This document shows positions 7,024 through 48,015 of a stretch of 64,000 bases of DNA, in pieces; positions within the stretch are counted from its first letter, which is position 1; every line of letters begins with the position of its first letter. The DNA lies in NCBI RefSeq assembly GCF_000317125.1, contig NC_019695.1, forward strand, positions 358,336-422,335. The letters run 5' to 3'. The DNA comes from Chroococcidiopsis thermalis PCC 7203. GTDB taxonomy: Bacteria > Cyanobacteriota > Cyanobacteriia > Cyanobacteriales > Chroococcidiopsidaceae. The notes under the pieces were generated by a model. It ran no database searches. It was not told the DNA's origin and was given only the letters and a program-made list of their open reading frames with translations. The position numbers and the translations under genes are program-made.

Positions 7024-7854
7024 CTAGGGATTATAATGACTCCAAGTTGAGAGTGGTGGCACTTGAAGTAATTCTTGGCTGAGACTTGAATGAATTAGTC
7101 CATTCGTGGCTAAAATCCTGCCAGTTGCTAGGTCGATTGGGCTACCATCATAGGCACTGACTTGACCCCCTGCTGCTTTGAGAATGGCAATTCCAGCAGC
7201 AATATCCCACAGAGAAATTCCCCGTTCCCAGTAGCCATCGATGCGCCCGCTGGCAACATAAGCTAAGTCTAAAGCTGCTGCGCCGCTGCGCCTGACTCCT
7301 TGAGTCAGATGAGTCAAATGACAGAATTCGGCATAGTTATTATCAGCTGTTTCGCGGCGATCGTAGGCGAAACCAGTTACCAGAAGACACTTACTCAGTT
7401 CGGCTGTGGTTGAAACGCTTATAGGTTTGCGGTTACAGGTCGCGATCGCCCCTTTTGCCCCTCGGAACAATTCATCACGATAAGGATCGAAAATGACTCC
7501 AACCTGTGGAACTCCAGCTATTAATAACCCAATTGACACGGCGAAACAAGGATATTGATGCGCGAAATTTGTCGTTCCATCTAAAGGATCGATCGCCCAA
7601 CAAAATTCGCTGTCTGCATTCCCCAGCTTGCCCGATTCTTCCGCTAGAATGGCATGATCGGGAAAATGCCGCTGTAAGACTTCTAAAACTACCACTTCCG
7701 ATGCTCGATCGGCAGCAGTTACTAAATCTCCACCCCGTCCTTTTTCTCTAACTTCTTCTAGCTTACCTAAATAGCTCAGCAAAACCGCACCCGCAGCTAA
7801 GGCGGCTTCTGTAGCAACATCTAAGAATGTTTGGAGTTGTCGATCGTTTGTCAT
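7024..7854 (-). CDS. Inositol monophosphatase family protein
   Basis: IMPase motifs DPLDGTTNF and WDIAAG. Confidence 0.85.
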   Translation of the reverse strand: MTNDRQLQTFLDVATEAALAAGAVLLSYLGKLEEVREKGRGGDLVTAADRASEVVVLEVLQRHFPDHAILAEESGKLGNADSEFCWAIDPLDGTTNFAHQYPCFAVSIGLLIAGVPQVGVIFDPYRDELFRGAKGAIATCNRKPISVSTTAELSKCLLVTGFAYDRRETADNNYAEFCHLTHLTQGVRRSGAAALDLAYVASGRIDGYWERGISLWDIAAGIAILKAAGGQVSAYDGSPIDLATGRILATNGLIHSSLSQELLQVPPLSTWSHYNP

Positions 7855-7905
7855 TTGTCATTTGTCATTTGTCAATATTCTCCCTTGTCCCCCTTGTCTT
7901 CCTTA
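7848..7905. repeat. STRR2-like (TTTGTCA)4 followed by CCCTTGT repeats
   Basis: Visible catttgtcatttgtcatttgtcaa then cccttgtcccccttgtcttcc. Confidence 0.85.
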
Positions 7906-8438
7906 TCCCTCTTCTCCCCGACTCCCGCCATTTGCCGAAATTCAGTCGGGGTTTGCCGCATTGGTTGTTTCACATCCCACACGCCACGCCCCATGATTCT
8001 TGCCCAGGCTTGTGCTTTTTCCAAGCGATCGTCATACTTACGATCGCGCGATCGCCCATCCCACAAAACATATCCCTCTTTCAGTAGTTGCTCGTTCAAC
8101 AATTTGCCATTTTGCCACACATAAGCCCACTGTCGCCCAAATTTATCTGGCTGTCCGTCAAGTTCTAAGGTAACTGTCTTGCCGTTGACCGTTGCTTCTA
8201 GCTGCTGTTTAGCTGCGTGTCCCCAAGGCTGTTGCTGGATATCTGGGGCTTCAATTCCCGCAAGTCTCACTTTGAAAGCCTCCCCTCTACTTATGGCTTC
8301 TAGAGTTTGTCCGCTGACTACACGCACAACCTGCGCTGGCATTCCGTTATCGATCGCACGAAACTGACAACCCTGAATAAACAAGAGTGGGAGAAAGACA
8401 AGGGAGACAAGGAAGACACGGGAGAAACTACTACTCAC
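7872..8438 (-). CDS. Thermonuclease (staphylococcal nuclease-like) lipoprotein
   Basis: Signal peptide with a lipobox-like FIQGC, then an SNase-like core (VVRVVSGQTL...GIEAPD...WAYVW). The signal-peptide codons are themselves built from CCCTTGT repeat DNA. Confidence 0.7.
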   Translation of the reverse strand: MSSSFSRVFLVSLVFLPLLFIQGCQFRAIDNGMPAQVVRVVSGQTLEAISRGEAFKVRLAGIEAPDIQQQPWGHAAKQQLEATVNGKTVTLELDGQPDKFGRQWAYVWQNGKLLNEQLLKEGYVLWDGRSRDRKYDDRLEKAQAWARIMGRGVWDVKQPMRQTPTEFRQMAGVGEKRDKEDKGDKGEY

Positions 8439-8954: not shown

Positions 8955-9041
8955 GGAGAGGTGGCCGAGTGGTTGAAGGCGCAGCACTGGAAATGCTGTT
9001 TGGGGGCAACTTCAACGTGGGTTCGAATCCCACCCTCTCCG
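8955..9041 (+). tRNA. tRNA-Ser (anticodon GGA), class II with a long variable arm
   Basis: Hand-folded: acceptor GGAGAGG/CCTCTCC, D-arm with GG, anticodon stem CAGCA/TGCTG with loop CTGGAAA, long variable arm, T-arm GGGTTCGAATCCC. Confidence 0.85.
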
Positions 9042-9141: not shown

Positions 9142-10182
9142 CTAGCTGACAACGCCCATTTCTTGTTGCGCTTTGGCTTTAGCAGCTTTGAAGTCGCTAG
9201 CCATTTGCTCGCTTTGGTCGCTACTGAGGTTGTTACGAATTGCGGTAAACATGTCGAACTCTTCTTGACGAATGTGATCGCCCACAGCATCCATCAGTTG
9301 CTTAACTTTATCTTTGAACTGCGAATTAGAAGGATCGATCGCTTTAATCTCATCTAATTTGGTTCTGAATTCAGCTTGCTCGCTGTAGAGTTCTTGAACT
9401 TTGTCTTCTGGATAGAAAGCACGCACTCTAGGATAGACTACTTCCTCTTCTGCGATCGAATGAGCCAACAGATCTTTGTAAATTTGACCGAAGTACTCTT
9501 GGATCTTCTGAGGATTGTCACTCTGCAACAACTCGGTGAACAGTGTATTCACTTTGCTGTGATCTGCACGAATCAGATCTTGGACGTTCATATCCTTCTT
9601 ATCAGAAGTTTGGGTAACGGCACTACCGACTACGCCAGAGAAAGCCGCAACCGCATCTTGTACGCGCGCCCACAGCCCTTGGTCTGCATCCTTGCCAGTC
9701 AGCTCGCGAGTCCCAACTTGCTCTAAGATCCCTTTGAGTTGTTCTTGGTGCGCTCTGTTTTCAAAGTTAACTGTATTCAAAGGACCGAACGCTATATCGA
9801 CATCTGCACCTACGACTTGAGCAGCTTTGTGCAGCATGATACCAGTCATTGCTTGTCCGTGTTTGAGCAGTTCGTGCTGAGCGAACTTGTCATACAAAGA
9901 CAATTCAGAGCCTTGCATCATTTGCTTGGTCTTTTCGATTAGCTCTTGTGTAACCTTTCTGGGTTCTCCCTGAATGCCATATTGTACGATGACAGTCTCA
10001 ATAACGCCCAAGTTCTTGCGATCGGAATCGAGCATTTCTTGAAGCCGCTTTTGAATTTCCGAATCGTTGATTTGTCCTAGCAGTGTTTCTTCGTTAGAAA
10101 TAATTAACTCTTGTAGAGCTTTCACGTCAGCTAGTTTAACCGCAATAGCAGAACGCTTGGTATCGTCTAATGTTACGACCAT
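9142..10182 (-). CDS. Hemerythrin (HHE cation-binding) domain protein
   Basis: C-terminal region with H/E-rich helices (DLLAHSIAEEEVVYP, DHIRQEEFDMFTAIR) resembling the hemerythrin-like fold. The N-terminal half could not be identified. Confidence 0.55.
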   Translation of the reverse strand: MVVTLDDTKRSAIAVKLADVKALQELIISNEETLLGQINDSEIQKRLQEMLDSDRKNLGVIETVIVQYGIQGEPRKVTQELIEKTKQMMQGSELSLYDKFAQHELLKHGQAMTGIMLHKAAQVVGADVDIAFGPLNTVNFENRAHQEQLKGILEQVGTRELTGKDADQGLWARVQDAVAAFSGVVGSAVTQTSDKKDMNVQDLIRADHSKVNTLFTELLQSDNPQKIQEYFGQIYKDLLAHSIAEEEVVYPRVRAFYPEDKVQELYSEQAEFRTKLDEIKAIDPSNSQFKDKVKQLMDAVGDHIRQEEFDMFTAIRNNLSSDQSEQMASDFKAAKAKAQQEMGVVS

Positions 10183-10549
10183 CTTTTCCAGTTCCTCTCA
10201 AGATTTTTGGATGTATCGGCTACATCTTTTAGGTTGTCACGCAGATTGCCCAATTCCATCTTTCTTTTGATGGATCGGTAGCATAGTTAGAAAAAACCAG
10301 TCAAAAGGTGGAAAAAGGCTCAGAGATAGCTAATTAATTCGGCTTATAGGTGATATTTCTTGTCAGGCTTTCTCAAGCAGAAAAAATTAAAATTTGTTTA
10401 AGGAAGATTTGTCTATTGACTAAAAATCTGCTGACGTTTTGATATAGGTTGACTCAACGTAGAATCTCCTCCACCACAAGACAGATACACAACGTTTGAC
10501 AAATCGTTAGATTGACTCAAGAGGAGCAAACTAAGGGTATAAGATTCGG

Positions 10550-11290
10550 ATGTCAGAACAACAAGGATTGGGAGAACAAGCGCTGAATAAAGCAGCAGAA
10601 ATCGGATTGTCTAGTCAACTCGATGAAGTAGAAAAGTTAGATGTAGATATTAAAACAGATCCGCTCAAAGCATTGCAAGGACAAGTAGACTCGGTGGCGA
10701 TCGCAGGTGAAGGAATGGTGATGCAAAAAGACCTGCGAGTAGAAAAGATGGATATGCAGGTGGATAGCGTTGCCATTAACCCCCTCAGTGCGGCAATGGG
10801 TAAAATCGAACTTACTCAACCAACCCAAGGTAAGGCTCGCGTGGTTTTGACAGCAGCAGACATCAATCGTGCTTTCAACTCCGAGTACATCCGTCAGCAA
10901 CTGCAAGCCACAAAAATTGAGATTAACGGGCAACAGATGACCGTAGTTCCGCAGCAGGTAGATTTCCAACTACCAGGTGAAGGAAAAGTGTCCCTGAATG
11001 CCAACATCCGCTTGCAGGAAACTAACGAAACAAAGCAAGTAGCTTTTACTGCCGTACCGGAAGTTGCATCTGGAGGGCAAACTGTCACCTTAAAAGACGT
11101 GCAATATGGAGACGAACAAGCACAATCTCCAGAGTTAACTAAGGCTTTAGTAGATGCAACCAGTGAAATTTTGAATCTGAGCAACTTTGACCTCGAAGGG
11201 ATCTCCCTCCGTATCAAAAATTTACAGGTCGAAGCAGGAAAGATCGCCCTAATTGCAGAGGCTAATGTTACGCAAATTCCATCAGCATAA
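10550..11290 (+). CDS. DUF2993 (LmeA-like) family protein
   Basis: 246 aa with the repeated beta-rich pattern typical of DUF2993. Assigned from memory of the family, not from a search. Confidence 0.5.
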   Translation: MSEQQGLGEQALNKAAEIGLSSQLDEVEKLDVDIKTDPLKALQGQVDSVAIAGEGMVMQKDLRVEKMDMQVDSVAINPLSAAMGKIELTQPTQGKARVVLTAADINRAFNSEYIRQQLQATKIEINGQQMTVVPQQVDFQLPGEGKVSLNANIRLQETNETKQVAFTAVPEVASGGQTVTLKDVQYGDEQAQSPELTKALVDATSEILNLSNFDLEGISLRIKNLQVEAGKIALIAEANVTQIPSA

Positions 11291-12464: not shown

Positions 12465-12947
12465 AATATTTAAAATCATAAATAAAAATATCCATACAAA
12501 TGCAGAAACAGTTTCGTCGAAAATCTATACTTTTAATTGAAGCACTCAACAAACAGAATTTACAAAAATAATTATGCAGCAAGTATAGTCATCTTCCACC
12601 AAACAGCAAAATTAGGCGATCGCTGGCAACTAACAACTGATAACTGTACGGGCGAGTTTAGCAAATAGATGGACAGCCTTAGCGAGTAAAGCTGTGCTTC
12701 ATACCTACCCCGACAATAACTGATAACTGTATTCCGTAAGATCGCGTAATCATCCTAATATTACAGAAAATTAATAGAAAAATCAGTGAATTCAAGGATG
12801 CTCGCCTAACTGACGCACAGTTAAATATAAAAGTTAAATATGTAAAACAGGGAACTTTGTAGGCTTTAACGCTATAAAAAGTTAGCCTCGCGCTAGAAAC
12901 TACACGGAAGAATCACCCGATTTTTCATGCATAGGAGTATTTTTTAA

Positions 12948-13670
12948 ATGGTTATCTCGTCCGACAATTTGCTCTTTTCTACTCACTCAAAACCAGGTAC
13001 ACAAGCAGAATATTCCTTAAAGAAGAAGTATCCCCAGAAGCACGACCATTACAGCTTTGATGACTACTTCCAATTTCAACCGAACACGGGCATTGTCACC
13101 GATTGGCACGACCAGCGCCATCTATTTGCCACAGAAGACTTCATCGTAGGATTAATTGAGGGATTGGAAGAAGAAGTCGGTAGCGCTTCTACAGTCTTGA
13201 TGTACAACATTGGCTTCGAGTGGGGAACCAGGGATGCCAAATTCTTTCAACAGTGGTTTGAGCAGGAATATGGCAAGAACGTCAAAGAAGTCAATTCCCT
13301 GTACATGCTAGAAGCATGGTGGTGGCCCTTCACCGCTCAAGGCTGGGGCAACTGGGAAGTCGATATGAGCGACCATAAAAACGGGTTCATGTTCGTCAAC
13401 ATCTTCGATTCTGCCGTAGCTAGAACATTGGGCGATGTTGGTAAACCAGTTTGTCATATCTATGCGGGATTATTTGCTGGATTCTTTAGCGATCTCGTTA
13501 AAAAAACCTTGAGTTGCATTGAAATTCAGTGCTACTCAATGGGAGAAACATACTGTAAATTCCTCTTGGGTACAAAAGACCGGATTGATGCTGCTGCCTT
13601 CTGGCACAACGAAGGTGCTACAGCTCGCGATATTGAAAAGCGGCTGCGTCATGGAGAACGGTTAGGATGA
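12948..13670 (+). CDS. V4R-domain protein (operon gene 1)
   Basis: C-terminal PVCHIYAGLFAGFFSDLVKKTLSCIEIQCYSMGETYCKFLLG matches the V4R consensus PVC....G...G........E..C...G...C.F. Paralogous to gene 4 (14742-15410). Confidence 0.6.
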   Translation: MVISSDNLLFSTHSKPGTQAEYSLKKKYPQKHDHYSFDDYFQFQPNTGIVTDWHDQRHLFATEDFIVGLIEGLEEEVGSASTVLMYNIGFEWGTRDAKFFQQWFEQEYGKNVKEVNSLYMLEAWWWPFTAQGWGNWEVDMSDHKNGFMFVNIFDSAVARTLGDVGKPVCHIYAGLFAGFFSDLVKKTLSCIEIQCYSMGETYCKFLLGTKDRIDAAAFWHNEGATARDIEKRLRHGERLG

Positions 13671-14188
13671 GGAATCGAAATGTTTTGCTGTGCCAATCGG
13701 TACAGCAATTTTTGCACTCTTGTAACTGGGACGGACAAGAGATTGAGGATGCCGATTACCCGCAACATCAACTTAGCGAGGAATTCCTATCTTCTTGGGA
13801 ATGCTTGACAGTTCAACAATTCTTGCGGCTTTGTGGATGGGAAGGAGAACAACAGCCAGCCAAGAGTGATGTGCCGATTCCAGCGCCACTACAAAATCAA
13901 TCGCCGCTACAGCATTTTACTCCCATCGCCAATCCTCATGCAGCTTGGTTGCGGCTTTCCGTCAAAAAATTCTTCAGCCATTGCAATTGGCAAGGGCGAC
14001 CAGTTGAGGATGTTAACTGGGGACAACTAGACCCCTATGCCCGAATGAAACAACGAGTCAGAGATTGTTTTGGGTATCTTCCTTGGGAAGGGAATCCAGA
14101 AATTGGAACTCTGCCCAAGTCTGCGACTAAGCTACCGCCACCTTTAGCTCCCGAACCGACCTTTTCAGACTTATCAGATCTATTCTAA
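13667..14188 (+). CDS. Cys/Trp triple-repeat protein (operon gene 2)
   Basis: Three copies of a ~14-aa motif: SVQQFLHSCNWDGQ, TVQQFLRLCGWEGE, SVKKFFSHCNWQGR. ATGA overlap with gene 1. Confidence 0.5.
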   Translation: MRNRNVLLCQSVQQFLHSCNWDGQEIEDADYPQHQLSEEFLSSWECLTVQQFLRLCGWEGEQQPAKSDVPIPAPLQNQSPLQHFTPIANPHAAWLRLSVKKFFSHCNWQGRPVEDVNWGQLDPYARMKQRVRDCFGYLPWEGNPEIGTLPKSATKLPPPLAPEPTFSDLSDLF

Positions 14189-14200
14189 AGCTGCAAATTT

Positions 14201-14686
14201 ATGTACCCAGAAATCAGAGCCATACTTGATGATGCTGAAGAACGCTATCTTAGGCTAGAAGAAATAGTTGCTTTGAAGCATCATGTTTCATCCTTTGCCC
14301 AACGCTTGCAAGTTTATGAAGTGCTGCGGGATAACGAAATTGCTATTTTTCAACCGATCGCTGACCAACTGCTCGTAGCTTTTCCCCAACACAAACAAGA
14401 AACCATCGAACGCGCCTTAAAAAATTGGCTGGGAACGCTACGTTACTGTGCAATGGCAATGCTGTTGAATAATCCCATGTTTCTCCAACATCGTTTGCTG
14501 GAATGGCTGACGGACATCATTCAAGTTCACCAAACACAAGGCATTGATACAACCCTTTATCAGTTCCTCATAACTCGCCTGCCAGAAATTTTGGCTGAGG
14601 AACAAATGGCTCTGCTGCAACCGTTCTTAGCTCAAGTGGAACAAGCTGTCATGGGAACTTGTAGTGCAGCCACAGTGCCAGCATAA
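14201..14686 (+). CDS. Phycobiliprotein-fold (globin-like) protein lacking the Cys-81 equivalent (operon gene 3)
   Basis: 161 aa and all-helical, with DAEERYLRLEEI and LGTLRYCAMAML segments aligning to phycobilisome-protein helices. No Cys at the bilin-attachment position. Confidence 0.5.
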   Translation: MYPEIRAILDDAEERYLRLEEIVALKHHVSSFAQRLQVYEVLRDNEIAIFQPIADQLLVAFPQHKQETIERALKNWLGTLRYCAMAMLLNNPMFLQHRLLEWLTDIIQVHQTQGIDTTLYQFLITRLPEILAEEQMALLQPFLAQVEQAVMGTCSAATVPA

Positions 14687-14741
14687 GTATCACTCGTCAG
14701 CATAACTCACTATCAAACAAGCAGAAGCAACAGACAAAATC

Positions 14742-15410
14742 ATGATTACTGTCGCCGATTTAATCAAAGACGAACGCTTACCAGGAAATTATTTTGCCTT
14801 TGATGCCTACATTCAGGGTGATTTTGAATCAGGTTTGCTGGAAAATCGCCACGGCGATCGCCTCATAGCAATTCCAGACACGCTGATTCAATCGATTTAC
14901 ACCGCACTCAACCAAGAAACAGGTCAAGCTTCCGGTGTAGTACTTGCCAATTGCGGGCGCTGGTGGGGCAAAAATTTCTACGCTCGGTTCGTCGAACAAG
15001 TTAGCGAGTACTACTCTAAACCGATCGATCAAATGGAGATGGTTGAGTTTACTCAGTGTCTCAGACAGTGTTGGAAAGCTCATGGTTGGGGAACTTTTGA
15101 ATTAGATTTGAGCTACTACCAACAAGGATTTTTAGTCGTCAAAACCCAGAATTCTCCCTACGCCAAGCAAGCACCCCAGAGCAAAAGACCAGTATGCTAT
15201 TTTGAAGCAGGTATCCTCCGCGCTTTCTTCAGCCAACTGACAGGACGAGAACTTCACTGCCTGCAAACAACCTGCGAATCTCTCGGAGCTGAGTACAACC
15301 ACTTTGTTCTAGGCTTAGCACAACGAATCAAACCAGCCGATGCTTGGTTAGAAGAACAGCAAGAGCATGAAATTATCATGCACCGACTCTGCAATAGTTC
15401 TAATCAATAA
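14742..15410 (+). CDS. V4R-domain protein (operon gene 4, paralog of gene 1)
   Basis: PVCYFEAGILRAFFSQLTGRELHCLQTTCESLGAEYNHFVLG is a V4R-like C-terminus. The N-terminal half also aligns with gene 1. Confidence 0.6.
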   Translation: MITVADLIKDERLPGNYFAFDAYIQGDFESGLLENRHGDRLIAIPDTLIQSIYTALNQETGQASGVVLANCGRWWGKNFYARFVEQVSEYYSKPIDQMEMVEFTQCLRQCWKAHGWGTFELDLSYYQQGFLVVKTQNSPYAKQAPQSKRPVCYFEAGILRAFFSQLTGRELHCLQTTCESLGAEYNHFVLGLAQRIKPADAWLEEQQEHEIIMHRLCNSSNQ

Positions 15411-15439
15411 AGCAATTAGCAATTAGCAATTAGGAAAAC

Positions 15440-15922
15440 ATGGCAAAGACTGTCAGACTAGAACCAATCGGTGAAGAAACCTCCATTCAAACGAATGGCA
15501 ACATCCTATCTGTTCTGTTAAAAAACGAACTGAATGTGTTGCATGAGTGTGGCGGTCGAGGAATGTGCGCTACCTGCCATGTTTACATCAAAAGTGGTAT
15601 GGAAAGCTTATCTTCACCCAGCCGACGCGAACGGCGGACAATTGAGGTCATTACTTCTGCCAACAATCATTCTCGCCTCGCTTGTCAAGCTTTAGTGATT
15701 GGTGAAGGTGTAGTCGTTGAATTACCTGCTGGTACGTATGTCAGTGCAATTGATGATATTGAGTCTCTCATCGGCACGCGGGCAGAACAAAACATCCTTC
15801 ACCCTCTAGACGGTAGAATCCTTGTGGAAGCAGGTAAGTTAGTTACCCGTTCGATGATTACTCAACTTCAAGATACTCGTACTGAGGTTTCTGAGTATAT
15901 GAATCATGCCAGCGATGCTTAA
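15440..15922 (+). CDS. [2Fe-2S] ferredoxin, adrenodoxin/putidaredoxin type (operon gene 5)
   Basis: CGGRGMCATCHVYI ... LACQA cysteine pattern, plus a ~60-aa C-terminal extension. Confidence 0.7.
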   Translation: MAKTVRLEPIGEETSIQTNGNILSVLLKNELNVLHECGGRGMCATCHVYIKSGMESLSSPSRRERRTIEVITSANNHSRLACQALVIGEGVVVELPAGTYVSAIDDIESLIGTRAEQNILHPLDGRILVEAGKLVTRSMITQLQDTRTEVSEYMNHASDA

Positions 15923-15967
15923 GCGCTAATAGTCAAGATTTTTTATTGTCCAGGAGGAGAAAAGTTT

Positions 15968-16441
15968 ATGTTAAGTCAGTTAGCCCGCTTAACCGTAGAA
16001 GCGGACGGTCGCTACGCTACTTCAGAAGAACTTCAGTTTCTTAAAGATTACATTGAGTCTCTTGATACTCGTGCAAGCGCATATCAAAAAATCCAAGCTG
16101 CTGAGGCAGAAGTTCTCAGTCAGTTGGAGGCAAAGTGGGCTGCTAACGAGAATTTGTTTGGGCAAGGTAACAATAAACTCAATGTTTCAACCTGCCAACG
16201 CGATCTGAAAAATATGATACGTTACACAGCCACAACTGTATTGAGTAGCGACCTCGATCGCCTGCGAGAAAGTTGTTTGCTTTGGTATCAAACTATCGTT
16301 CGTGCTTACAAATACGGACATATTGCTAACATCACATATCCATTACTAAATGAGTTGATGAAACAGTTTCTATCTGCTGAAGAAGCAGCGCTTGCATCTC
16401 CAGTTTTAGGACTCAACCAAGTGATTTTGGGTAAAACATAA
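15968..16441 (+). CDS. Allophycocyanin-like phycobiliprotein-fold protein retaining the Cys-81 equivalent (operon gene 6)
   Basis: ADGRYATSEELQF resembles the N-terminal phycobiliprotein helix (ADARGEFLS.EQL). STCQRDLKNMIRYTATTV aligns with AACLRDMEIILRYV, the bilin-binding Cys region. There is an AGGAGGA RBS 8 nt upstream. Confidence 0.6.
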   Translation: MLSQLARLTVEADGRYATSEELQFLKDYIESLDTRASAYQKIQAAEAEVLSQLEAKWAANENLFGQGNNKLNVSTCQRDLKNMIRYTATTVLSSDLDRLRESCLLWYQTIVRAYKYGHIANITYPLLNELMKQFLSAEEAALASPVLGLNQVILGKT

Positions 16442-16539: not shown

Positions 16540-17526
16540 ATGCAAGACAATTTCACAGCACCAGCAAATAAATATCCTTGGTTAGAAAAGGTAGAAATCG
16601 CATCGGTCGTTGGTTCAATTGGTGGCGCGATCGCTTCTTTCATGCTCAACCAGGCAGCAGTTGCCGCAATTCCGCTCTCTGTAACTGTCGCGCTCAACTT
16701 AACTAATCGACGGATACTGTTAGATCATTTAAAACAACACAATTTAGCCACGATCGCTCAAGTTTTGCAAGAGCAGGTCAAAACTCAATCTAATCTAGAA
16801 AGACTGAGTGAAGAATTGGGAACATTCGAGCAACAAACAGAGAAAAAGCACGGTGAAGCGCAAGCTGGAATTAAGTTGTTAGACGAACATCTTCAGCTAA
16901 CAAATAATAACTTGCAACAAGCGCGAGAAAATAGCGATCGCAGTATTGCTCAACTCCAACAGCAAGACGCAAACATTCAAAATCAGTTACAAACGCAACT
17001 AGAAACGCTCAACCAGCAGCTAGAGCAGCTCCAGCAACAAACTAATATGCTAGTACAGGAGCAAAACAACCGTTTAATGAACGAACAAGCTAAGATTGCT
17101 AGAACTGTAGATGCTTTGCGCGATATCGAGACTTGCACTCAAAGTTTGCGGATCAATCCGATTTCTGCTAATGCTTTCTTCAATCGCGGTTTGAGTTATC
17201 AACGTTTGGGCGATCGCGAAGCAGCAGTTGGCGATTTTACAGAAGCAATTCGAGTTAATCCTCAATATGCAGAAGCTTTTCAAAGTCGCGGTCTTGCCCA
17301 TGCCGATCTCGGTGATAAAAAAGCGGCAGTACGGGATTTACGCGAAGCCGCCAGACTATTTTTTGAGAGCGGTGAGATTGATAAATATCAAATTGCTCGC
17401 GACCTCGGTAAGAAGTTTCACGATTTAGATTCGCCTAGTGAAGCAGAAGCGCTCACAGAGGTAGCTTACGAAAGCTCAATGGCAGGCTCGTTTGAAGATA
17501 TTGCCTTAGAGTCTTTGTTCTCTTAA
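16540..17526 (+). CDS. Coiled-coil / TPR-repeat protein with an N-terminal TM segment
   Basis: Q/L-rich coiled coil followed by TPR-like repeats (AFFNRGLSYQRLGDREAAVGDFTEAIRVNPQYAEAFQSRGLAH). Confidence 0.65.
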   Translation: MQDNFTAPANKYPWLEKVEIASVVGSIGGAIASFMLNQAAVAAIPLSVTVALNLTNRRILLDHLKQHNLATIAQVLQEQVKTQSNLERLSEELGTFEQQTEKKHGEAQAGIKLLDEHLQLTNNNLQQARENSDRSIAQLQQQDANIQNQLQTQLETLNQQLEQLQQQTNMLVQEQNNRLMNEQAKIARTVDALRDIETCTQSLRINPISANAFFNRGLSYQRLGDREAAVGDFTEAIRVNPQYAEAFQSRGLAHADLGDKKAAVRDLREAARLFFESGEIDKYQIARDLGKKFHDLDSPSEAEALTEVAYESSMAGSFEDIALESLFS

Positions 17527-17633
17527 TTTAGGTCAATTGGGAGGCGATCGCGCCGTAACGAAATCTGCCCGATCTATGTAACGTCATTTTTGTTTAGTCC
17601 AAAACTAAGCAGGACTTACGCAGTCGATCCCCC

Positions 17634-17700
17634 AAACCCCCTTAAAAAGGGGGGACTTTAAGCCCCCTTTTTAAGAGGGGAACCAGGGGGGATCGAGATC
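17634..17700. repeat. Dispersed palindromic element GATCCCCC...CCCCTTAAAAAGGGG...GGGGGGATC
   Basis: Visible nested inverted repeats with G/C runs around TTAAAAA cores. Related copies sit at 35078-35112 and 47804-47912. Confidence 0.75.
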
Positions 17701-17746
17701 TCAGATTTTCTTGTGCGTAACTCCTGACTAAGGCAAAGTTGACCAA

Positions 17747-17785
17747 AATGAATTGGGGTTACATGACCCCAATTCTCAGTTATTT
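17747..17785 (+). terminator. Stem-loop GAATTGGGGT-tacatg-ACCCCAATTC followed by a T-rich tract
   Basis: Perfect 10-bp inverted repeat followed by tcagttatttt. Confidence 0.5.
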
Positions 17786-17984
17786 TCAATTTTTGAGCTG
17801 TCAGTCAGTGGATCGAGCCTGTTTTGGTATTTCAAGCATTTATAGAAACTCCGCTAAAAGACTAATATCTAAAATTAAAACTAGCAGATAGCAGAGCAGT
17901 CATAACAGATTTGATACAAAGCATTATATCGCTCTAATCGTTGTAACCGACACAAAAATTAAGATACTTTTTATCCTAAAAACT

Positions 17985-18863
17985 ATGAGTGAAACTTTAC
18001 CAATTTCCTCCAAATATCATATTTTAAAGCTAGTTGGACAAGGGCAATTCGGACGAGTCTACTGTGCTATTGATAAAAAAAATGGTAAAACTGTAGCACT
18101 TAAAGAACTCGACCAACAAAAGTTTCCCACGAAAAAGTTTTTACGAGAATTACATTTCTTATCTAGCTTGCAGCATCCAAATATCATTTCTTTCCAAGGT
18201 ATAGAGCATATAAAAAATGCAAGATTTCTGGTTATGGACTATTGCGAAGCCGGAACTTTGCGTAATTTCATGCAAAGCGATGACTTTAATCTCATTCACG
18301 GTTTGAAATTTATTACAGATATTCTTGCTGGACTGGGACACGCACACACTCGTGGTGTCGTTCACTGCGATATTAAGCCAGAAAATATTTTAATTAGTAT
18401 AGGTTCTACTAGCTACTTAGCTCGGATTTCTGATTTTGGTTTAGCAAGAGTTTGTCAAGAAATTTCTACAGATAAAATTATCTGTACTGGTTCTCCTGCA
18501 TATATGGCTCCAGAAAGATTTTATGGTAAATCTTCTCCAGCGTCAGATCTTTATGCAGTTGGAGTCATGCTGTACGAGTTGGTTTTGGGTTTTCGTCCTT
18601 TTTCAGGAATGCCAGGAGAATTGATGACAGCTCACATGAATCAAGCTGTGGAAATTCCTAGCGCTGTTCCGCTCTTACTACGTTCTACAATCTCCACTGC
18701 CATGCAAAAATTCCCTAACAAGCGGTTTCCATCAGCAGCTGAGATGATGAAGTCAGTGCAATTAGCCATAGAAGTAGAAAAAGTAACGTACGGTAATATT
18801 CCTCCTCTAAATATACCTTCTAATATTCCTTCATTCTCTTACCTAAATAGTACGCAAGCCTAG
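17985..18863 (+). CDS. Hanks-type Ser/Thr protein kinase
   Basis: GQGQFGRVY...ALKEL (ATP-binding Lys), HCDIKPENIL, DFGLAR, GSPAYMAPE. Locally AT-rich. Confidence 0.85.
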   Translation: MSETLPISSKYHILKLVGQGQFGRVYCAIDKKNGKTVALKELDQQKFPTKKFLRELHFLSSLQHPNIISFQGIEHIKNARFLVMDYCEAGTLRNFMQSDDFNLIHGLKFITDILAGLGHAHTRGVVHCDIKPENILISIGSTSYLARISDFGLARVCQEISTDKIICTGSPAYMAPERFYGKSSPASDLYAVGVMLYELVLGFRPFSGMPGELMTAHMNQAVEIPSAVPLLLRSTISTAMQKFPNKRFPSAAEMMKSVQLAIEVEKVTYGNIPPLNIPSNIPSFSYLNSTQA

Positions 18864-18962: not shown

Positions 18963-19685
18963 ATGAGCTACTTAGTTAAACCTGGATTCTCGACTTGTTA
19001 TTATATTCGTAAACTCTTGCTACAAAACGAAGAGGAATTGAAAACAATCTTGAGTCAAAAAGCCGGCTTTTGTTTCAACACACAAGAAACTTTAGAAAAG
19101 CTTTTAAGAGGAATTTATCTGGAAGAAACGATCGAACAACTTTTACAAACTCTTTATGCCGATACTACTGAAATTTCTACTAAAGTTGAAAAACTGGAAG
19201 TGTTAGTAGCCAATCATCAAAGAATTTCTGTAGAAAGTCCCCATAACTATCAAGGATTAGGCGAGATTAAACGCCAGATCTTATGGATATTAGGTTTTAA
19301 GCGAGTAGCTGTCAAGATTGAAGATATAGTTCAAGCCCTGGTTCAATTGAATGAATATAGTATCAATTACATAGGGCGCACGTTGACTATCAACACATGG
19401 AAATCAACTCGTCCTGATTTTGAATGGCTAAATTTATTTGAATTCGATCGGTTTGGCAAAATCACCTTTGCTGGACAAGGAAAGGATGTAGCCAATGTCG
19501 AACAACTCAATTGGTTACAAGAATGGATCGTTGGCTACGTCTGTCAAGTTGCTCAGTTCATCCGCGACTTTACAACTACAATTGAATATAAAAAAATTGG
19601 TGAATTACCGGAAGGGGTATTAATTACTCAAGTTACTTCTTACTCTCACTGGGTTGCTGCAAAACCGCGATCGGCACAAGTTTGA
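18963..19685 (+). CDS. Hypothetical protein, probably co-transcribed with the kinase
   Basis: 240-aa ORF with no recognisable motif. Same strand and the same AT-rich composition as the kinase. Confidence 0.4.
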   Translation: MSYLVKPGFSTCYYIRKLLLQNEEELKTILSQKAGFCFNTQETLEKLLRGIYLEETIEQLLQTLYADTTEISTKVEKLEVLVANHQRISVESPHNYQGLGEIKRQILWILGFKRVAVKIEDIVQALVQLNEYSINYIGRTLTINTWKSTRPDFEWLNLFEFDRFGKITFAGQGKDVANVEQLNWLQEWIVGYVCQVAQFIRDFTTTIEYKKIGELPEGVLITQVTSYSHWVAAKPRSAQV

Positions 19686-29376: not shown

Positions 29377-30420
29377 ATGGTTGTTAAACATCAAGCTACT
29401 ATTCCACGCTTAACTGAAGGTAGTATCGAACAGTTACGCAAGAGAGGATTACCTGAATGCAACACTGATGAAGAAATAGCATTAGCAATGGGAATCAGCG
29501 TCGAAAAGCTGCATTTTTTAGCTGGCGATCGCTCTATATCTTCTACTTCACTTTATTCCCGCTTTCAGATTTCCAAAAAAACAGGTGCAGCGAGAACAAT
29601 TACTGCACCAACGCCCGAACTAAAAGCTGCTCAAAGATGGATTTTAAAGCATATTTTAGATAAGATAGAAATTCACGATGCAGCTCATGGTTTTTGTCGC
29701 GATCGCTCTATTGTTACCAATGCCACACCGCATGTAGGTAGAGATGTAATAGTAAAACTCGATCTACAAAACTTTTTTCAATTAATTACATATAAACGTG
29801 TCAAAGAATTATTTCATGGTTTTGGTTATTCTGAAACTGCGGCAACAATTTTTGGATTAATCTGTACGATCGCGACAACAAATAATAGTAATAAAACGAG
29901 CTGTAAAAATATAGAAAAACGTCACTTACCTGAAGGTGCGCCAACCAGCCCTGCTATTTCAAATCTGGTTTGCGATCGCCTCGATACGCATTTAACTAAA
30001 CTTGCCAATAATCTTGGATTTCGCTATACACGTTATGCCGACGATCTAACATTTTCTTGTTATGGAGCAGCTCATAAAGTAGATAAATTAATTCAAGAAA
30101 GTAAATCGATCGTTACTCAAGAAAGCTTTACAGTTAATTCTGATAAAACTCAAGTTTTAAGCAAATCTGTACAACAAATAGTCACGGGTATTGTGGTAAA
30201 CCAACAATTAAATCTATCTCGAAAAACGTTGAAAGCTTTCCGAGCTACTTTGTATCAAATCGAACGAGAAGGTTTATCAGGTAAAAAATGGGGGAATTCA
30301 AATAATTTAATTGCTACAATTACTGGGTTTGCTAACTACGTAGCAATGGTTAACCCCAGCAAAGGCGCAGAATTTTTAGCATCAGTAGAACGGATTAAAC
30401 AGAAATGCGATCGCTCCTAA
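29377..30420 (+). CDS. Retron-type reverse transcriptase (Ec86/retron-Eco1-like)
   Basis: Clear colinear similarity to the Ec86 RT as I recall it: LRKRGLP..ISVEKL, ELKAAQRWILKHILDK, NATPHVGRDVIVKLDLQNFF, LPEGAPTSPAISNLVCDRLD, YTRYADDLTFS (YADD) and the retron-specific VTG motif (IVTGIVVNQ). Confidence 0.85.
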   Translation: MVVKHQATIPRLTEGSIEQLRKRGLPECNTDEEIALAMGISVEKLHFLAGDRSISSTSLYSRFQISKKTGAARTITAPTPELKAAQRWILKHILDKIEIHDAAHGFCRDRSIVTNATPHVGRDVIVKLDLQNFFQLITYKRVKELFHGFGYSETAATIFGLICTIATTNNSNKTSCKNIEKRHLPEGAPTSPAISNLVCDRLDTHLTKLANNLGFRYTRYADDLTFSCYGAAHKVDKLIQESKSIVTQESFTVNSDKTQVLSKSVQQIVTGIVVNQQLNLSRKTLKAFRATLYQIEREGLSGKKWGNSNNLIATITGFANYVAMVNPSKGAEFLASVERIKQKCDRS

Positions 30421-30597: not shown

Positions 30598-30669
30598 GTT
30601 TGATTAGCTCAGTTGGTAAGAGCGCCTGCTGTATGCGGGATGACCCAGGTTCAAATCCTGTATCAAACC
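30598..30669 (+). ncRNA. tRNA-like element 1 (pseudo-tRNA; anticodon loop reduced to 5 nt)
   Basis: Hand-folded: acceptor GTTTGAT/ATCAAAC, U8, D-arm GCTC-AGTTGGTAA-GAGC, T-arm CCAGG-TTCAAAT-CCTGT. The anticodon arm folds only as CCTGC-tgtat-GCGGG, a 5-nt loop. Confidence 0.5.
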
Positions 30670-30671: not shown

Positions 30672-30745
30672 CGAAAGTTAGCTCATTTGGTTAGAGCAAT
30701 CGGTGTATCGCCGATTGGTAGCAGGTTCGATTCCTGTACTTTCTC
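30672..30745 (+). ncRNA. tRNA-like element 2 (non-canonical anticodon loop UGUAUCG, no U33)
   Basis: Acceptor cGAAAGT/ACTTTCt with a mismatched first pair, D-arm GCTC-ATTTGGTTA-GAGC, anticodon stem ATCGG/CCGAT with loop TGTATCG, T-arm GCAGG-TTCGATT-CCTGT. Confidence 0.5.
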
Positions 30746-44364: not shown

Positions 44365-47055
44365 ATGAACACTCAAACCAAACGGCTTTATCGCCAACTG
44401 CTTGTAGCTACCTTATTAATGGGTGGCACTTTTAACATGACTGCACCTGTTTTGGCGCAGGCTGTACCGACTGCACCACTCACGGGTGCGGGAACTGAGA
44501 TCAAAAACAAAGCGACTGCTACTTATGAAGACCCCAGTAACCCTGGTACGATAAATGCAACTTCTAACGAAGTGACTATCACAGTAGCAGAGGTTGCAGG
44601 TATCGCTGTTGTTGGTTCGACACCTGTTGACAGGAACGGTAGTAGTGTCTCCAACGGAGATATTTTAGACTTCGACTTTACAATTACTAACGTCGGTAAC
44701 GATACCACTGCTATCTACATTCCAGGCAAGACAATCCTAAATACAGGAGGTCGTATTGTCGGCGGTCAAATCGGTAGTACAGCTGGAGCCAATAGCGTTT
44801 ATATCGTTAGAATTAACGGCAACACGCTGACAACTCCAGTTGCCGTTCCTGATGCTGGCGTTCAATCAGATAATGCTGCATTTATCCTAGCTATTCAAGG
44901 CGCAGGCTATGCTGCTTTTGATGGCTCGATTGATGTCAACCAAGAGATAGTAGTACGAGTTCCTGTCACAGTGACAGAAACCGTAGCAACTAATCCAATT
45001 AGCGTGCAATTCGGTAACACTGCCGATCCTGGAACGCAGAATCGCCAGAACATCCTATATGCAGCCGATGCCACTACTGATGATGATGTGCGGACTGCTG
45101 ACATATCCGAACCGGCTCCTAGAAATTTAGGTCCTGCAAATGGAGAACGGGAAGCAGCAGCATTCCAATCGATTCCTTTAGGAACGCAGGTCACTACCCG
45201 CGCTCTAGCAACTGTACTCAAGACTCGCTCTCTACATACTCCTAATACTTCAGCGCTCGATGACGACCAGATTCGTTACCGTTTAGACTTGCGCGTTGAA
45301 GGCTCCTATCCCAATGCCTCCTCCTTTGCTGTAGGTAACTTGGAAGGAACGGCTCTGGCTAACGCCATTACGGGTGCAGGCGCTCCTACTGGAGCTGTGA
45401 TTTTAGTTTCTGATGTCATTCCTACAAATACAGTTTTGGATGCTGGCTTCTTACCAACCGCACCTTCAGGCTGGACTGTAGTGTATAGTAATGACGATCC
45501 TGCGGCGGCTAACGCTACAGCCCTCAGTGCCAACTGGACAACCACTGCACCTACAAATCAGGCTCAGGCAGATTTAGTGAAGCGGATTGGTATTGTCCGT
45601 ACTGGCTCAATGACTGCTGGATCTTCTACACTTACCGATACAAATGGCTTCCAGTTCCAGGTAAGGACAGCCACGGGCTTCGCTGGTGGTCAAATCCTCA
45701 ACATTGCTCAAGCCTTCGGTCATACCCAAGGAGATAGCGATCTTAACCGGATTATCTATGATGAGTCCGGCGACCAATTCCCCAATAACTTTGAGGGTAC
45801 GACAACTCCTTACGCTGACGGTGCAGGTGGCTTCGATCCTGCTAATGATGACGGTATAGCTCTTGCTACTTACGGTAGTGACCCCAGCAACCAACCTGTA
45901 AATAACCCACAGAGTAACCTGGGTACGGGTAGTGATGGTGAAGTTAACCTACTTTCCATTGACGCACCTGGTAGCATTTTGACCGGACCTAGAGGAGTTC
46001 CAGGGGCAACAGGTCCAGGAAACTCCAATCAGACTGACTACGTGAACCAGTCAATTTCGCCGCCAGTGGGTAAAGATCCTGCCGTTGCGCTCACAAATGC
46101 AGAAACTCTCGATCTTGTTTTCAATAACACGGTCAGAAACCCCAACTCGCTTGGACTCAACAACGTAGTTCTGAAGCCAATTCCCGCTGAACAAGCCGAT
46201 TACGCAGCAGATAACACGGCTGCTAACCAGCAAGACCCCAATACTGGTTATGGTACGAATGCAACCTTACCAAATGGTACGACTGTCAAGATCGAGTATG
46301 GTGGACAATCAGCCACTTATACATGGAATGGCAGTACCTTTAGCACTACTGATACACCAATTAAAATTACTACGCTCAACGGTCAGGTCAGCCTTGACTA
46401 CACAGTAACAGTAAATCTTGGCGATGGCGCTGCTCAAAATGCTGCATATCCAGTAGCGATCGTGGCATTTGTCGATGAAGATAATAACAATGAGTTTAGC
46501 CGGAATTCAACGACTCCCACGGCTGAAAGTATCTTCAACTTGAAGGTCGATCGAACCTATACGGGTTTCGTGAAGCTGACGAAAGAAGCTCGGATTTTGG
46601 ATGATGCTGGTAATCCAATTACTGTAGATGCAACTGGTGCTGCGATCGCAGATCCTGATGGATTTACAACGAATCCAGCTAGACCTCAACCCGGTTGGAA
46701 GATCGAGTATCGGATTTCCTACGAAAACATCTCGACACCTGCTTCTACTGGTGGTAGCGGTAGCGTTCAATTAAGTGCTAGCAACTTCAAAATCTTTGAA
46801 GATGGTACTGGCGATACGACAAACCCCAGAAATGGTACTTGGGCTGCAACTACAGAACACGTACAGACAAAGGCAGTTGGTACACAGGGAACAGTCAGCT
46901 TCTACAATACGACGATCGATACGATCAATCCTGGTTCTGGCGTACCTGAAGCTTTGACGAATACTGGTTATGTCAACTTTATCGGTAGTTTAGCTCCGAA
47001 TGGTACAGCAGGAACACCACAAGGAAACTTCAAGTTCCAGCGTTTAGTGAAATAG
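44365..47055 (+). CDS. Secreted T/N/G-rich surface protein with DUF11-like (conserved repeat domain) modules
   Basis: Signal peptide (LLVATLLMGGTFNMTAPVLAQA); low-complexity T/N/G/A-rich beta repeats; DUF11-like segments (GDILDFDFTITNVGND). Confidence 0.6.
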   Translation: MNTQTKRLYRQLLVATLLMGGTFNMTAPVLAQAVPTAPLTGAGTEIKNKATATYEDPSNPGTINATSNEVTITVAEVAGIAVVGSTPVDRNGSSVSNGDILDFDFTITNVGNDTTAIYIPGKTILNTGGRIVGGQIGSTAGANSVYIVRINGNTLTTPVAVPDAGVQSDNAAFILAIQGAGYAAFDGSIDVNQEIVVRVPVTVTETVATNPISVQFGNTADPGTQNRQNILYAADATTDDDVRTADISEPAPRNLGPANGEREAAAFQSIPLGTQVTTRALATVLKTRSLHTPNTSALDDDQIRYRLDLRVEGSYPNASSFAVGNLEGTALANAITGAGAPTGAVILVSDVIPTNTVLDAGFLPTAPSGWTVVYSNDDPAAANATALSANWTTTAPTNQAQADLVKRIGIVRTGSMTAGSSTLTDTNGFQFQVRTATGFAGGQILNIAQAFGHTQGDSDLNRIIYDESGDQFPNNFEGTTTPYADGAGGFDPANDDGIALATYGSDPSNQPVNNPQSNLGTGSDGEVNLLSIDAPGSILTGPRGVPGATGPGNSNQTDYVNQSISPPVGKDPAVALTNAETLDLVFNNTVRNPNSLGLNNVVLKPIPAEQADYAADNTAANQQDPNTGYGTNATLPNGTTVKIEYGGQSATYTWNGSTFSTTDTPIKITTLNGQVSLDYTVTVNLGDGAAQNAAYPVAIVAFVDEDNNNEFSRNSTTPTAESIFNLKVDRTYTGFVKLTKEARILDDAGNPITVDATGAAIADPDGFTTNPARPQPGWKIEYRISYENISTPASTGGSGSVQLSASNFKIFEDGTGDTTNPRNGTWAATTEHVQTKAVGTQGTVSFYNTTIDTINPGSGVPEALTNTGYVNFIGSLAPNGTAGTPQGNFKFQRLVK

Positions 47056-47067
47056 CTGGAGCGAATA

Positions 47068-47104
47068 GAATTCGCGACTACGATTGTGTAGTCGCGAATT
47101 TTAG
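47068..47104 (+). terminator. Rho-independent terminator
   Basis: GAATTCGCGACTAC-gattgt-GTAGTCGCGAATT followed by TTTT. Confidence 0.75.
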
Positions 47105-47200
47105 GCTCAAGTGCTTTGCAATATTCCTACCTCTCTGTTACATCCGTGCCTTGAATGGGCAAATTAATGGATGGATTTGAATCATCAGGAGACTGTCACA

Positions 47201-47758
47201 ATGAAACATTTGTCAATGTTTGGCGTAGCTGTCGCCGTATTATTATCTGCACCTCTAGGCGATCGCATCGTTAGCGCCCAACAACAGCCAAAAGCAACAG
47301 TTCAAAACATTCAATCTCAACGCCCCGTACAGTTAAATCTGATGGCAGAAAAGAAAGTCATGCAGAAAGACGCGCAGGGCAAGCCAAAAGCAACTTGGCA
47401 AGCAATGCGGGGAAAAGTTACAGTTTTTCCAGGGGATGTGATTCGCTATACCGTGCGCGGTGCTAACAGTGGCGATCGCCCAGTCAAAAATCTCGTCTTA
47501 ACTCAACCAATTCCCAAGCAGACGACATATATTTTGAATTCTGTTACGATTAACCATCCTGGGGTTGCGGTTACGTACAGTATTGATAATGGCAAGAGTT
47601 TTGTCGAAAAACCAACTGTAAAAGTCAAATTAGCTGACGGTAAGGTTAAAACCGAGCCAGCACCAGCAGAACTCTACACTCACATTCGCTGGAAATTTGA
47701 CAAAGCAGTTGATTCTAGCCAGTTGGTTGGTGCAGCTTATCAAGTCAAGGTGAAATAA
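47201..47758 (+). CDS. Small secreted DUF11-domain protein (candidate fibre/pilin-like subunit)
   Basis: Signal peptide (MKHLSMFGVAVAVLLSAPLG) and a single DUF11-like core (GDVIRYTVRGANSGDRPVKNLVLTQPIPKQTTYI). Confidence 0.55.
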   Translation: MKHLSMFGVAVAVLLSAPLGDRIVSAQQQPKATVQNIQSQRPVQLNLMAEKKVMQKDAQGKPKATWQAMRGKVTVFPGDVIRYTVRGANSGDRPVKNLVLTQPIPKQTTYILNSVTINHPGVAVTYSIDNGKSFVEKPTVKVKLADGKVKTEPAPAELYTHIRWKFDKAVDSSQLVGAAYQVKVK

Positions 47759-47912
47759 ATTCGGAATTCGGAATTCGGAATTCCGAATTTTTACATGAGC
47801 GTCGATCCCCCTAAATCCCCCTTTTTAAGGGGGACTTGGAAAGGTTGAACCACCCTTTTTAAGGGGGACTTGGAAAGGTTGAACCCCCCTTAAAAGGGGG
47901 GCAGGGGGGATC
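47757..47912. repeat. (GGAATTC)4 array followed by a tandem-duplicated GATCCCCC...GGGGGATC palindromic element
   Basis: Visible. CCCTTTTTAAGGGGGACTTGGAAAGGTTGAAC occurs twice. Confidence 0.8.
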
Positions 47913-48015
47913 TAAAAGCTCTACTAGGTCAAAACAATACTGCTCAAATCTCTTCTTAAATAATAGCGATCGCCATTGCACAATTGACCTAAATCAACAT
48001 CGGCTTGTCCTCCAA

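Follow-up and report, generated by a model that had tools for sequence, protein, structure and literature searches.

The V4R-globin-ferredoxin gene cluster of Chroococcidiopsis thermalis PCC 7203: very probably an orthologue of the cyanobacterial slr0144-slr0152 operon in a variant without fed4

What is the compact group of co-oriented genes that begins at position 12948 of the stretch of Chroococcidiopsis thermalis PCC 7203 DNA analyzed here (64 kb in full length, referred to as the window), and does it represent a system that has not been described before? A first-pass annotation, made from the letters alone, had recognized a six-gene operon at 12948-16441, encoding two V4R proteins, a pair of phycobiliprotein-fold proteins, a repeat protein and a ferredoxin, and had regarded it as a possible novel complex for the processing or sensing of bilins or other tetrapyrroles. 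Our answer, as judged from sequence comparison, is that the eight genes designated here g1 to g8 are very probably orthologous to the cyanobacterial slr0144-slr0152 operon, here in a variant that lacks fed4 (slr0150). Both the system and its variant were known before, and the claim that it is not a described system is wrong because the same gene order has already been published as the slr0144-slr0152 operon; a published gene order of this kind was what the annotation itself had named as the finding that would speak against it.

The open reading frame (ORF) listing agrees with six closely packed genes, all on the forward (+) strand. The first gene, g1 (12948-13670, 240 aa), encodes a V4R protein of the Slr0144 type (PF02830, E=5e-22). 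It is followed by g2 (13667-14188, 173 aa), encoding a repeat protein of the Slr0145 family for which Pfam and NCBIfam profile searches returned no family, by g3 (14201-14686, 161 aa), encoding a phycobiliprotein-fold globin of the Slr0146 type (PF00502, 35.7 bits at a score cutoff of 22.2 bits), and by g4 (14742-15410, 222 aa), encoding a second V4R protein, of the Slr0147 type (PF02830, E=6e-19). The last two of the six are g5 (15440-15922, 160 aa), the gene for an adrenodoxin/ISC-type [2Fe-2S] ferredoxin of the Fed5/Slr0148 type (Fer2, PF00111, E=5e-10), and g6 (15968-16441, 157 aa), the gene for a cyanobacterial BBAG of the Slr0149 type, which is an allophycocyanin-fold globin (PF00502, 49.6 bits). 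The V4R, phycobiliprotein-fold and Fer2 domains that had been assigned by eye are therefore all supported by profile searches. However, although there are indeed six such genes, the unit does not end with them. It extends past 16441, and two further genes on the same strand belong to it: g7 (16540-17526), encoding a TPR protein of the Slr0151 type (TPR_1 and TPR_2, E ~1e-11), and g8 (17985-18863, 292 aa), encoding a Ser/Thr protein kinase of the SpkG (Slr0152) type that consists of the kinase domain alone (Pkinase, E=1e-50). Two overlaps at ATGA had also been claimed, of which a single one exists, between g1 and g2 (13667-13670 by ORF coordinates); the ATGA at 14742 is the g4 start codon followed by an A, with no overlap. 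The spacers between g2 and g3, g3 and g4, g4 and g5, and g5 and g6 are 12, 55, 29 and 45 nt, respectively, and that between g6 and g7 is 98 nt, with none of the spacers from g1 to g7 exceeding this last value.

The identity of these genes can be read from a locus of Synechocystis salina (L036), whose proteins were assigned to 90% clusters by exact-sequence look-up. The L036 ORF at the Slr0144 position, to which g1 is 63% identical, falls in the same 90% cluster as a '4-vinyl reductase' of Synechocystis PCC 6803; the ORF to which g4 is 57% identical shares its 90% cluster with 'slr0147 [Synechocystis sp. PCC 6803]' (P74446); and the ORF to which g5 is 67% identical clusters with P74447 / BAA18548 (slr0148). 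The Slr0145-type ORF of S. salina (7815-8240) carries the repeat motif and the C-terminal DLxxLF shared with g2. The TPR protein g7 is 32% identical over 275 aa to an S. salina protein named 'slr0151 family photosystem II repair protein', a name taken from UniRef, and neither g7 nor this S. salina Slr0151 orthologue matches a dedicated NCBIfam model in the release searched. The kinase g8 shares 50% identity with the SpkG orthologue of S. salina, a protein of 654 aa, over residues 50-292 of the latter. Because L036 holds the same gene set and shares 90% clusters with slr0147 and slr0148, g1-g8 can be taken, on the strength of these alignments, as orthologues of slr0144-slr0149, slr0151 and slr0152 (spkG).

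To what extent is this arrangement kept elsewhere? A genome scan with an alignment of g6 yielded 80 loci, and the window proteins were searched by tblastn against all 80. The best loci are two Chroococcidiopsis records with 95-100% amino-acid identity over all genes, and a complete core is present in 72 loci from other species. In the 26 colinear loci, which include Chroococcidiopsis, Aliterella, Snowella, Synechocystis, Waterburya, Pleurocapsales, Xenococcaceae and a Thermosynechococcaceae metagenome-assembled genome (MAG), the genes follow the order V4R-A, repeat protein, globin, V4R-B, ferredoxin, BBAG, TPR protein and kinase, and the TPR gene lies 3' of the BBAG gene in 24 of them. The 46 loci of the Microcoleus/Tychonema type are rearranged, yet the genes remain together: ferredoxin and BBAG genes are set apart from an inverted block of V4R-B, globin, repeat protein and V4R-A genes, the kinase gene, transcribed divergently, lies some 0.5 kb away from that of the ferredoxin, and tblastn detected no TPR gene in these 46 loci. 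The kinase gene adjoins the cluster in 67 of the 72 loci with a complete core, and the g3-type globin gene keeps the same cluster position across loci. Since synteny holds across the 72 complete-core loci, the gene arrangement is not due to chance; the gene-neighbourhood check that the annotation had suggested thus came out in favour of a conserved cluster. Complete clusters of the cyanobacterial type were also seen on contigs labelled 'Actinomycetota bacterium' (L018, Microcoleus-like) and 'Candidatus Gracilibacteria' (L034, colinear), which are most likely mis-binned cyanobacterial contigs.

The Synechocystis operon has been known under several names. PMC4853703 and PMC9145668 trace its description as a photosystem-assembly ('pap') operon to 2004-2008, and report slower growth and lower photosystem II (PSII) activity when it is deleted in Synechocystis. 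The former source attributes its discovery to iron and oxidative-stress microarrays and explains 'pap' as PSII assembly proteins, the products having been detected in PSII preparations. The operon forms a single transcription unit, TU2264, in Synechocystis (PMC4195498). Its products Slr0144-Slr0149 interact physically, as found in 2021 by co-fractionation and affinity purification-mass spectrometry (PMC9880817), and Slr0151, a TPR protein that Synechocystis requires for PSII repair, binds both CP43 and D1 (PMC9145668, PMC4853703). In 2014, Cassier-Chauvat and Chauvat distinguished three forms of the conserved gene cluster, namely e, e' (which includes the kinase gene) and e'' (e' minus fed4), and named slr0148 as the adrenodoxin-like Fed5 (PMC4284462). 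The layout in the window is that of cluster e''.

When g1-g8 are compared with Synechocystis slr0144-slr0152, the eight gene families stand in the same order and orientation, with 32-67% identity to the S. salina orthologues. The window holds both V4R types, a tailed Fed5, one globin with a CxRD motif and one without the Cys, an Slr0145-type protein, and colinear TPR and kinase genes, as expected for a member of this operon type. There are also differences. The plant-type ferredoxin gene fed4 (slr0150), present in S. salina at 10482-10817, has no counterpart between g6 and g7; the kinase has 292 aa (domain only) versus 654 aa in S. salina; g2 has four repeats and bears Cys, whereas its S. salina counterpart has three Cys-free repeats; and a conserved 240-aa ORF, g9, located 3' of the kinase gene, is extra relative to the Synechocystis operon. 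Fed4 is not defining for the wider operon family because the layout without it is the published e'' variant (PMC4284462) and is found in Acaryochloris as well, where the 'apcA' annotation of these globins has been called into question (PMC6002478). These comparative points leave the classification of the locus unchanged. Orthology, gene order, domains and motif conservation are what our analysis itself establishes.

The origin of the cluster is addressed by Rockwell et al. (2023), who name slr0144-slr0149 as a cyanobacterial BBAG example. According to this study, the ancestors of the globin, V4R and Fe-S genes lay in heterotroph clusters with a heme oxygenase and a pre-PcyA bilin reductase, and the globins of the heterotroph clusters attach bilins autocatalytically via the Cys of CxRD, as demonstrated for BBAG-1 and BBAG-3 (PMC10151467). 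These pre-PcyA (pre-1/pre-3) clusters likewise contain an Fe-S protein, one V4R protein per clade and one or two CxRD phycobiliprotein-like globins (PMC10151467). Unlike them, the window cluster has no bilin reductase or heme oxygenase gene, and TPR and kinase genes are added. The homology to the heterotroph clusters is given here as per PMC10151467, as the window comparison covered cyanobacterial loci. The link between the ferredoxin and bilin or tetrapyrrole handling, which the first-pass annotation had drawn, agrees with the profile searches and with this published ancestry.

Because the anatomy of the window can be combined with the Synechocystis literature and with the ancestry of the cluster, a mechanism can be proposed, which we hold to be possible rather than probable as worded: a bilin globin pair and V4R carriers, together with a kinase-gated Fed5 and a tether, docked on PSII by the TPR protein. 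The components would act as follows: the g3 and g6 globins would form an alpha/beta-like pair holding a bilin, most likely phycocyanobilin, on the Slr0149-type subunit only; the two zinc-stabilized V4R proteins would serve as binders or carriers of a hydrophobic tetrapyrrole; Fed5, gated by the SpkG-type kinase, would act in electron supply or sensing; the modules would be tethered by the Slr0145-type repeat protein, which is predicted to be disordered; and the TPR protein would, via CP43/D1, bring the assembly to intermediates of PSII assembly or repair. Such a complex would link PSII biogenesis to tetrapyrrole and redox status, and would not act in light harvesting.

Do the V4R proteins fit such a role? 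The two proteins are 29% identical to each other over 201 aa. In g1, the C-terminal V4R domain carries the full Cys/Glu/Cys/Cys zinc motif with all four ligands, and across this C..E..C..C motif g1 aligns with the sensor domains of PoxR and MopR, its closest solved relatives; the N-terminal part of g1 bears a weak resemblance to XylR_N (E=2e-3). In the V4R domain of DmpR, zinc is held by Cys151, Glu172, Cys177 and Cys185, beside the ligand pocket (PMC7264223). As the alignment matches PoxR and MopR and the zinc ligands of DmpR, the Cys/Glu motif, which had been taken to be a small-molecule-binding one, appears to be a structural zinc site and not a small-molecule site. It had further been stated that both V4R paralogs end in this motif. 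This is correct for g1, in which the motif is complete, but g4 lacks the Glu (replaced by Gln) and the last Cys (replaced by Asn). The sensor domains of XylR, DmpR, MopR and PoxR thus resemble g1 and g4 in the V4R domain with its zinc site (complete in g1) and weakly, through XylR_N, in the N-terminal half, and in their solved structures the V4R domain forms a hydrophobic pocket for a small ligand (PMC7264223). Unlike the XylR-type regulators, however, g1 and g4 stand alone, without an AAA+ or DNA-binding domain, and g4 is without two of the four zinc ligands.

These proteins could also be viewed as BchJ-like factors of chlorophyll biosynthesis or as carriers of chlorophyll precursors, in an operon that delivers chlorophyll to the photosystems and has no bilin role. 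The V4R domain is named after BchJ, and in sensor proteins it does bind small hydrophobic ligands (PMC7264223); under carbon-rich conditions, the operon is regulated together with chlorophyll synthesis, and Slr0144 and Slr0147 have been proposed as free-pigment buffers (PMC9175036); and the PSII phenotypes of operon and slr0151 mutants would fit (PMC9145668, PMC4853703). However, g1 and g4, which share the V4R domain with BchJ, fall far under the equivalog cutoff of the BchJ model TIGR02019 (21.5 and 15.9 bits, respectively, versus 74.3 bits). Moreover, their closest solved relatives are aromatic-effector sensor domains and not enzymes, and the two invariant globin partners together with the descent from bilin-reductase clusters point to bilins (PMC10151467). 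We therefore consider a chlorophyll-only role unlikely.

In the bilin-based mechanism proposed above, electrons or a redox signal would pass through g5. The best matches of g5 in the PDB, which cover residues 15-99 only, are E. coli ISC ferredoxin (1I7H), putidaredoxin and adrenodoxin, and its Cys pattern is C37-x5-C43-x2-C46-x35-C82. An adrenodoxin-type ferredoxin with a 60-aa tail, as originally annotated, is thus what the gene encodes: about 60 aa are left beyond the matched residues, and this C-terminal extension is conserved across 61 orthologues and has no family match in Pfam or NCBIfam. The vertebrate-type [2Fe-2S] ferredoxins (ISC Fdx, putidaredoxin and adrenodoxin) share with g5 the fold and the Cys-x5-Cys-x2-Cys-x35-Cys spacing. 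In contrast to them, g5 carries the tail of about 60 aa and has globin and V4R gene partners, not ISC or P450 ones. On the ISC ferredoxin model fdx_isc (TIGR02007) it reaches 60 bits, below the cutoff of 132.1, and no isc genes were seen near g5 in the domain searches of the window ORFs.

The kinase gene may be functionally connected with that of the ferredoxin. In PMC11863333, which cites Angeleri 2018, the phosphorylation of Fed5 is stated to require the kinase SpkG, and the persistence of the kinase gene at some 0.5 kb from that of the ferredoxin in the rearranged loci fits such SpkG-dependent phosphorylation. Across the kinase ORFs of 73 loci, the lengths are bimodal, with 272-307 aa (11 loci, including g8) or 599-710 aa. 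A further 240-aa protein without a Pfam or NCBIfam match is encoded by g9 (18963-19685, +), 99 nt 3' of g8, and its membership of the unit is tentative. It is also located 3' of the kinase gene in the two Chroococcidiopsis records (99%), a Chroococcidiopsis MAG (55%) and Aliterella (51%), and two Pleurocapsales-type loci (L009 and L042) have weak matches upstream of the cluster; g9 is possibly a lineage-specific accessory gene. That g9 might be the detached C-terminal half of a long SpkG was ruled out, as no BLASTP similarity was found.

The proximity of kinase and ferredoxin genes could also be taken to mean that the operon is mainly a signalling module for redox or iron status, with the ferredoxin and the Cys-rich V4R proteins (compare archaeal MsvR) as sensors, the kinase as output and the globins as accessories. 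Both V4R proteins do match the MsvR model (E ~7e-10), the kinase gene is retained beside the cluster's ferredoxin gene in the 67 loci mentioned above, the SpkG-dependent phosphorylation of Fed5 (PMC11863333) would agree, and expression of the operon is repressed under iron limitation and low carbon as well as by oxidative stress and high light (PMC4853703, PMC4284462). On the other hand, the MsvR match (39 bits versus a cutoff of 220) reflects the shared V4R domain only, the conserved Cys and Glu residues correspond to a structural zinc site (PMC7264223), and there is no DNA-binding or other output domain. Two conserved globins and the association with PSII would also be left unexplained. A mainly redox- or iron-sensing module is thus decidedly improbable, and it overlaps the mechanism that we prefer rather than excluding it.

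If the bilin-binding globins, the V4R proteins and the ferredoxin do form one assembly on PSII as we propose, what might hold them together? A candidate is g2. The triple CxWxG repeat reported in the first-pass annotation is present in three copies (CNWDG, CGWEG and CNWQG), but there is a fourth, degenerate copy (LPWEG), and the Cys does not characterize the family. The full signature of g2 is a DLSDLF C-terminus preceded by four V..F[FL]...(N/P)W.G repeats. The repeats and this type of C-terminus recur in the ORF that separates V4R-A from the first globin in 59 of 68 loci, including that of S. salina, with 1-3 strict V..F[FL]...NW.G copies and an end of the form [LFI]xx[LM]F, typically DLSDLF. 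The Cys of the g2 CxWxG repeat is kept only within the Chroococcidiopsis-like group and is mostly Tyr or Ile elsewhere. It therefore seems lineage-specific, the conserved signature apparently being V..F[FL]...NW.G plus the C-terminal DLxxLF. A profile search of 1.84 billion representatives brought the Slr0145 family to 366 representative clusters at E<=1e-3. Its members are 86-420 aa long with a variable number of repeats (some have at least 5, at about 400 aa), low-complexity linkers lie between the repeats, and the C-terminal D[LF]xxLF-COOH is near-invariant. The AlphaFold2 (AF2) model of g2, taken merely as a hint of disorder, has a predicted local distance difference test score (pLDDT) of 42, with short helices on the repeats. 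The protein is probably largely disordered, and the predicted features would fit a disordered tether bearing short binding motifs. There appears to be no description of this motif architecture in the literature searched, where slr0145 is named in just two papers and discussed in neither.

A more far-reaching version of the mechanism can be formulated on this basis, although we give it a low probability: the locus might encode a single regulated machine, in which a bilin-loaded heterodimer and two V4R carriers are strung together by the Slr0145-type protein, and a kinase-switched ferredoxin provides power or sensing, the whole reporting tetrapyrrole or redox status to PSII assembly. In such a machine the tether would act through its V..FF...NW.G helices and its C-terminal DLxxLF peptide, the latter possibly being a ligand of the TPR protein.

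By comparison, the original idea of an undescribed complex that processes or senses bilins or other tetrapyrroles with a dedicated electron donor has become very improbable. Its domain composition was borne out, and both synthesis and binding of bilins are features of the ancestral clusters (PMC10151467). However, the cluster and its gene order have been published under several names (PMC4853703, PMC4284462, PMC9880817, PMC10151467, PMC6002478), and g1-g8 are direct counterparts of slr0144-slr0152.

The globins are central both to the bilin-based mechanism and to the last alternative. The g3 and g6 families are homologous (hhalign probability of 99%), the two window proteins being 26% identical. 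In the profile of g6 orthologues, 'TCQRD' lines up with 'ACLRD' of ApcF, that is, with the chromophore Cys, and the CxRD motif of g6 is made up of Cys76, Arg78 and Asp79. The g3 family has A-L-K-N opposite C-Q-R-D of g6, and g3 is thus without the Cys and Asp of CxRD. The annotated globin pair, one member with a Cys at the bilin site and the other without, is confirmed in this respect. Among 73 distinct Slr0149-type orthologues, the Cys76 column contains Cys in 50, Trp in 22 and Phe in one, while Asp79 is invariant. The Cys is replaced in part of Microcoleus, Waterburya and Gloeocapsopsis (for example, in loci L007, L013, L035 and L012). The AF2 model of g6 has a pLDDT of 81, and allophycocyanin subunits match it at a template modelling (TM) score of about 0.8. 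Allophycocyanin alpha/beta therefore resembles g3/g6 in the globin-like fold and in consisting of two paralogous subunits, and its chromophore site has the same Cys-x-Arg-Asp position as g6. However, the identity to the window globins is about 17-23%, the genomic context is another one, the Cys is variable in the orthologues, and, unlike in the allophycocyanin pair, one subunit (g3) has no chromophore Cys/Asp. Of the phycobiliprotein models, g3 and g6 pass only the superfamily model PF00502; on the NCBIfam equivalogs ApcA, ApcB, CpcB and CpeB, g6 scores 15-29 bits and g3 17-18 bits versus cutoffs of 225-279.

That g3 and g6 are light-harvesting phycobilisome subunits, i.e. a divergent allophycocyanin alpha/beta pair, can thus be dismissed as hardly credible, even though both exceed the PF00502 gathering score, the g6 model fits allophycocyanin, and many orthologues are named 'phycobilisome protein' or 'allophycocyanin' in databases: the equivalog scores are far too low, the chromophore residues are gone in g3 and about 30% of g6 orthologues have Trp in place of the Cys, the gene neighbours are V4R, ferredoxin, TPR and kinase genes and not linker or lyase genes, phylogeny puts the cyanobacterial BBAGs outside the light-harvesting clade, tested BBAGs are weakly fluorescent with a 3-7% quantum yield (PMC10151467), and the 'apcA' annotation has been explicitly doubted (PMC6002478).

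Several points nevertheless weigh against the mechanism that we favour, or against the view of g1-g8 as one expressed unit. As Cys76 is Trp or Phe in 23 of 73 orthologues, it would appear that covalent bilin attachment cannot be essential to the Slr0149-type family. The bilin-binding assays on BBAGs covered heterotroph proteins and no cyanobacterial BBAG (PMC10151467), and no bilin reductase or heme oxygenase was found by Pfam among the ORFs of at least 130 aa in the 64 kb of the window. Synechocystis can do without Fed5 and Fed4 and then shows no stress phenotype (PMC4284462), the PSII phenotypes are possibly due to slr0150-slr0152 and not to the core genes (Rockwell et al., PMC10151467), and other studies tie the operon to photosystem I (PMC4853703). 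With regard to transcription, g7 and g8 are separated by a 458-nt spacer (17527-17984) containing a hairpin at 17750-17775, and these two features leave a shared transcript of g1-g8 uncertain. The hairpin is a near-perfect 26-nt palindrome, GAATTGGGGTTACATGACCCCAATTC, with a terminator-like score on both strands, and the kinase gene g8 may therefore have its own promoter.

As for the start of the operon, its promoter and 5' untranslated region (UTR) are presumed to lie within 12465-12947 (+), a 483-nt intergenic region that is the sole long non-coding gap before g1. The sigma-70-like matches upstream of g1 are no more numerous than in shuffled sequence, and in a promoter and terminator scan of 12.2-20 kb the counts were likewise not above those of shuffled sequence; for this reason no promoter is claimed.

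The surroundings of the cluster are ordinary housekeeping genes, and Rfam at the gathering threshold found only three tRNAs in the window, none within the operon. A hemerythrin (HHE cation-binding) domain forms the C-terminal part of a 346-aa protein encoded at 9142-10182 (-), some 2.8 kb upstream of the operon and preceded by a tRNA gene at 8955-9041; linkage of the hemerythrin gene to the cluster was not seen in the other loci. An isolated 347-aa reverse transcriptase is encoded at 29377-30420 (+) (RVT_1, E=4e-24) in an ORF-poor stretch, followed by two adjacent tRNAs (30598-30669 and 30672-30745). It could be a retron, a diversity-generating retroelement (DGR) or a group II intron remnant, and it hit no Rfam family at the gathering threshold. 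From 44365 to 62410 there is a run of very large proteins of secreted or surface type (896, 520, 1388, 1024 and 1310 aa) with DUF11, DUF7925, DUF7927, beta-helix/NosD and porin-like domains, which is interrupted by a DDE transposase at 56850-57980.

What, then, does the presence of this operon in Chroococcidiopsis mean? The cluster is thought to be a relic of the gene set by which phycocyanobilin synthesis entered cyanobacteria, and it is tied to PSII assembly and repair. For work on its mechanism, the comparison offers the following handles: the bilin Cys, which is dispensable in about 30% of the orthologues; the degenerate zinc site of V4R-B; the proximity of the kinase and ferredoxin genes; and the signature of the Slr0145 family, with its repeat and C-terminal peptide.

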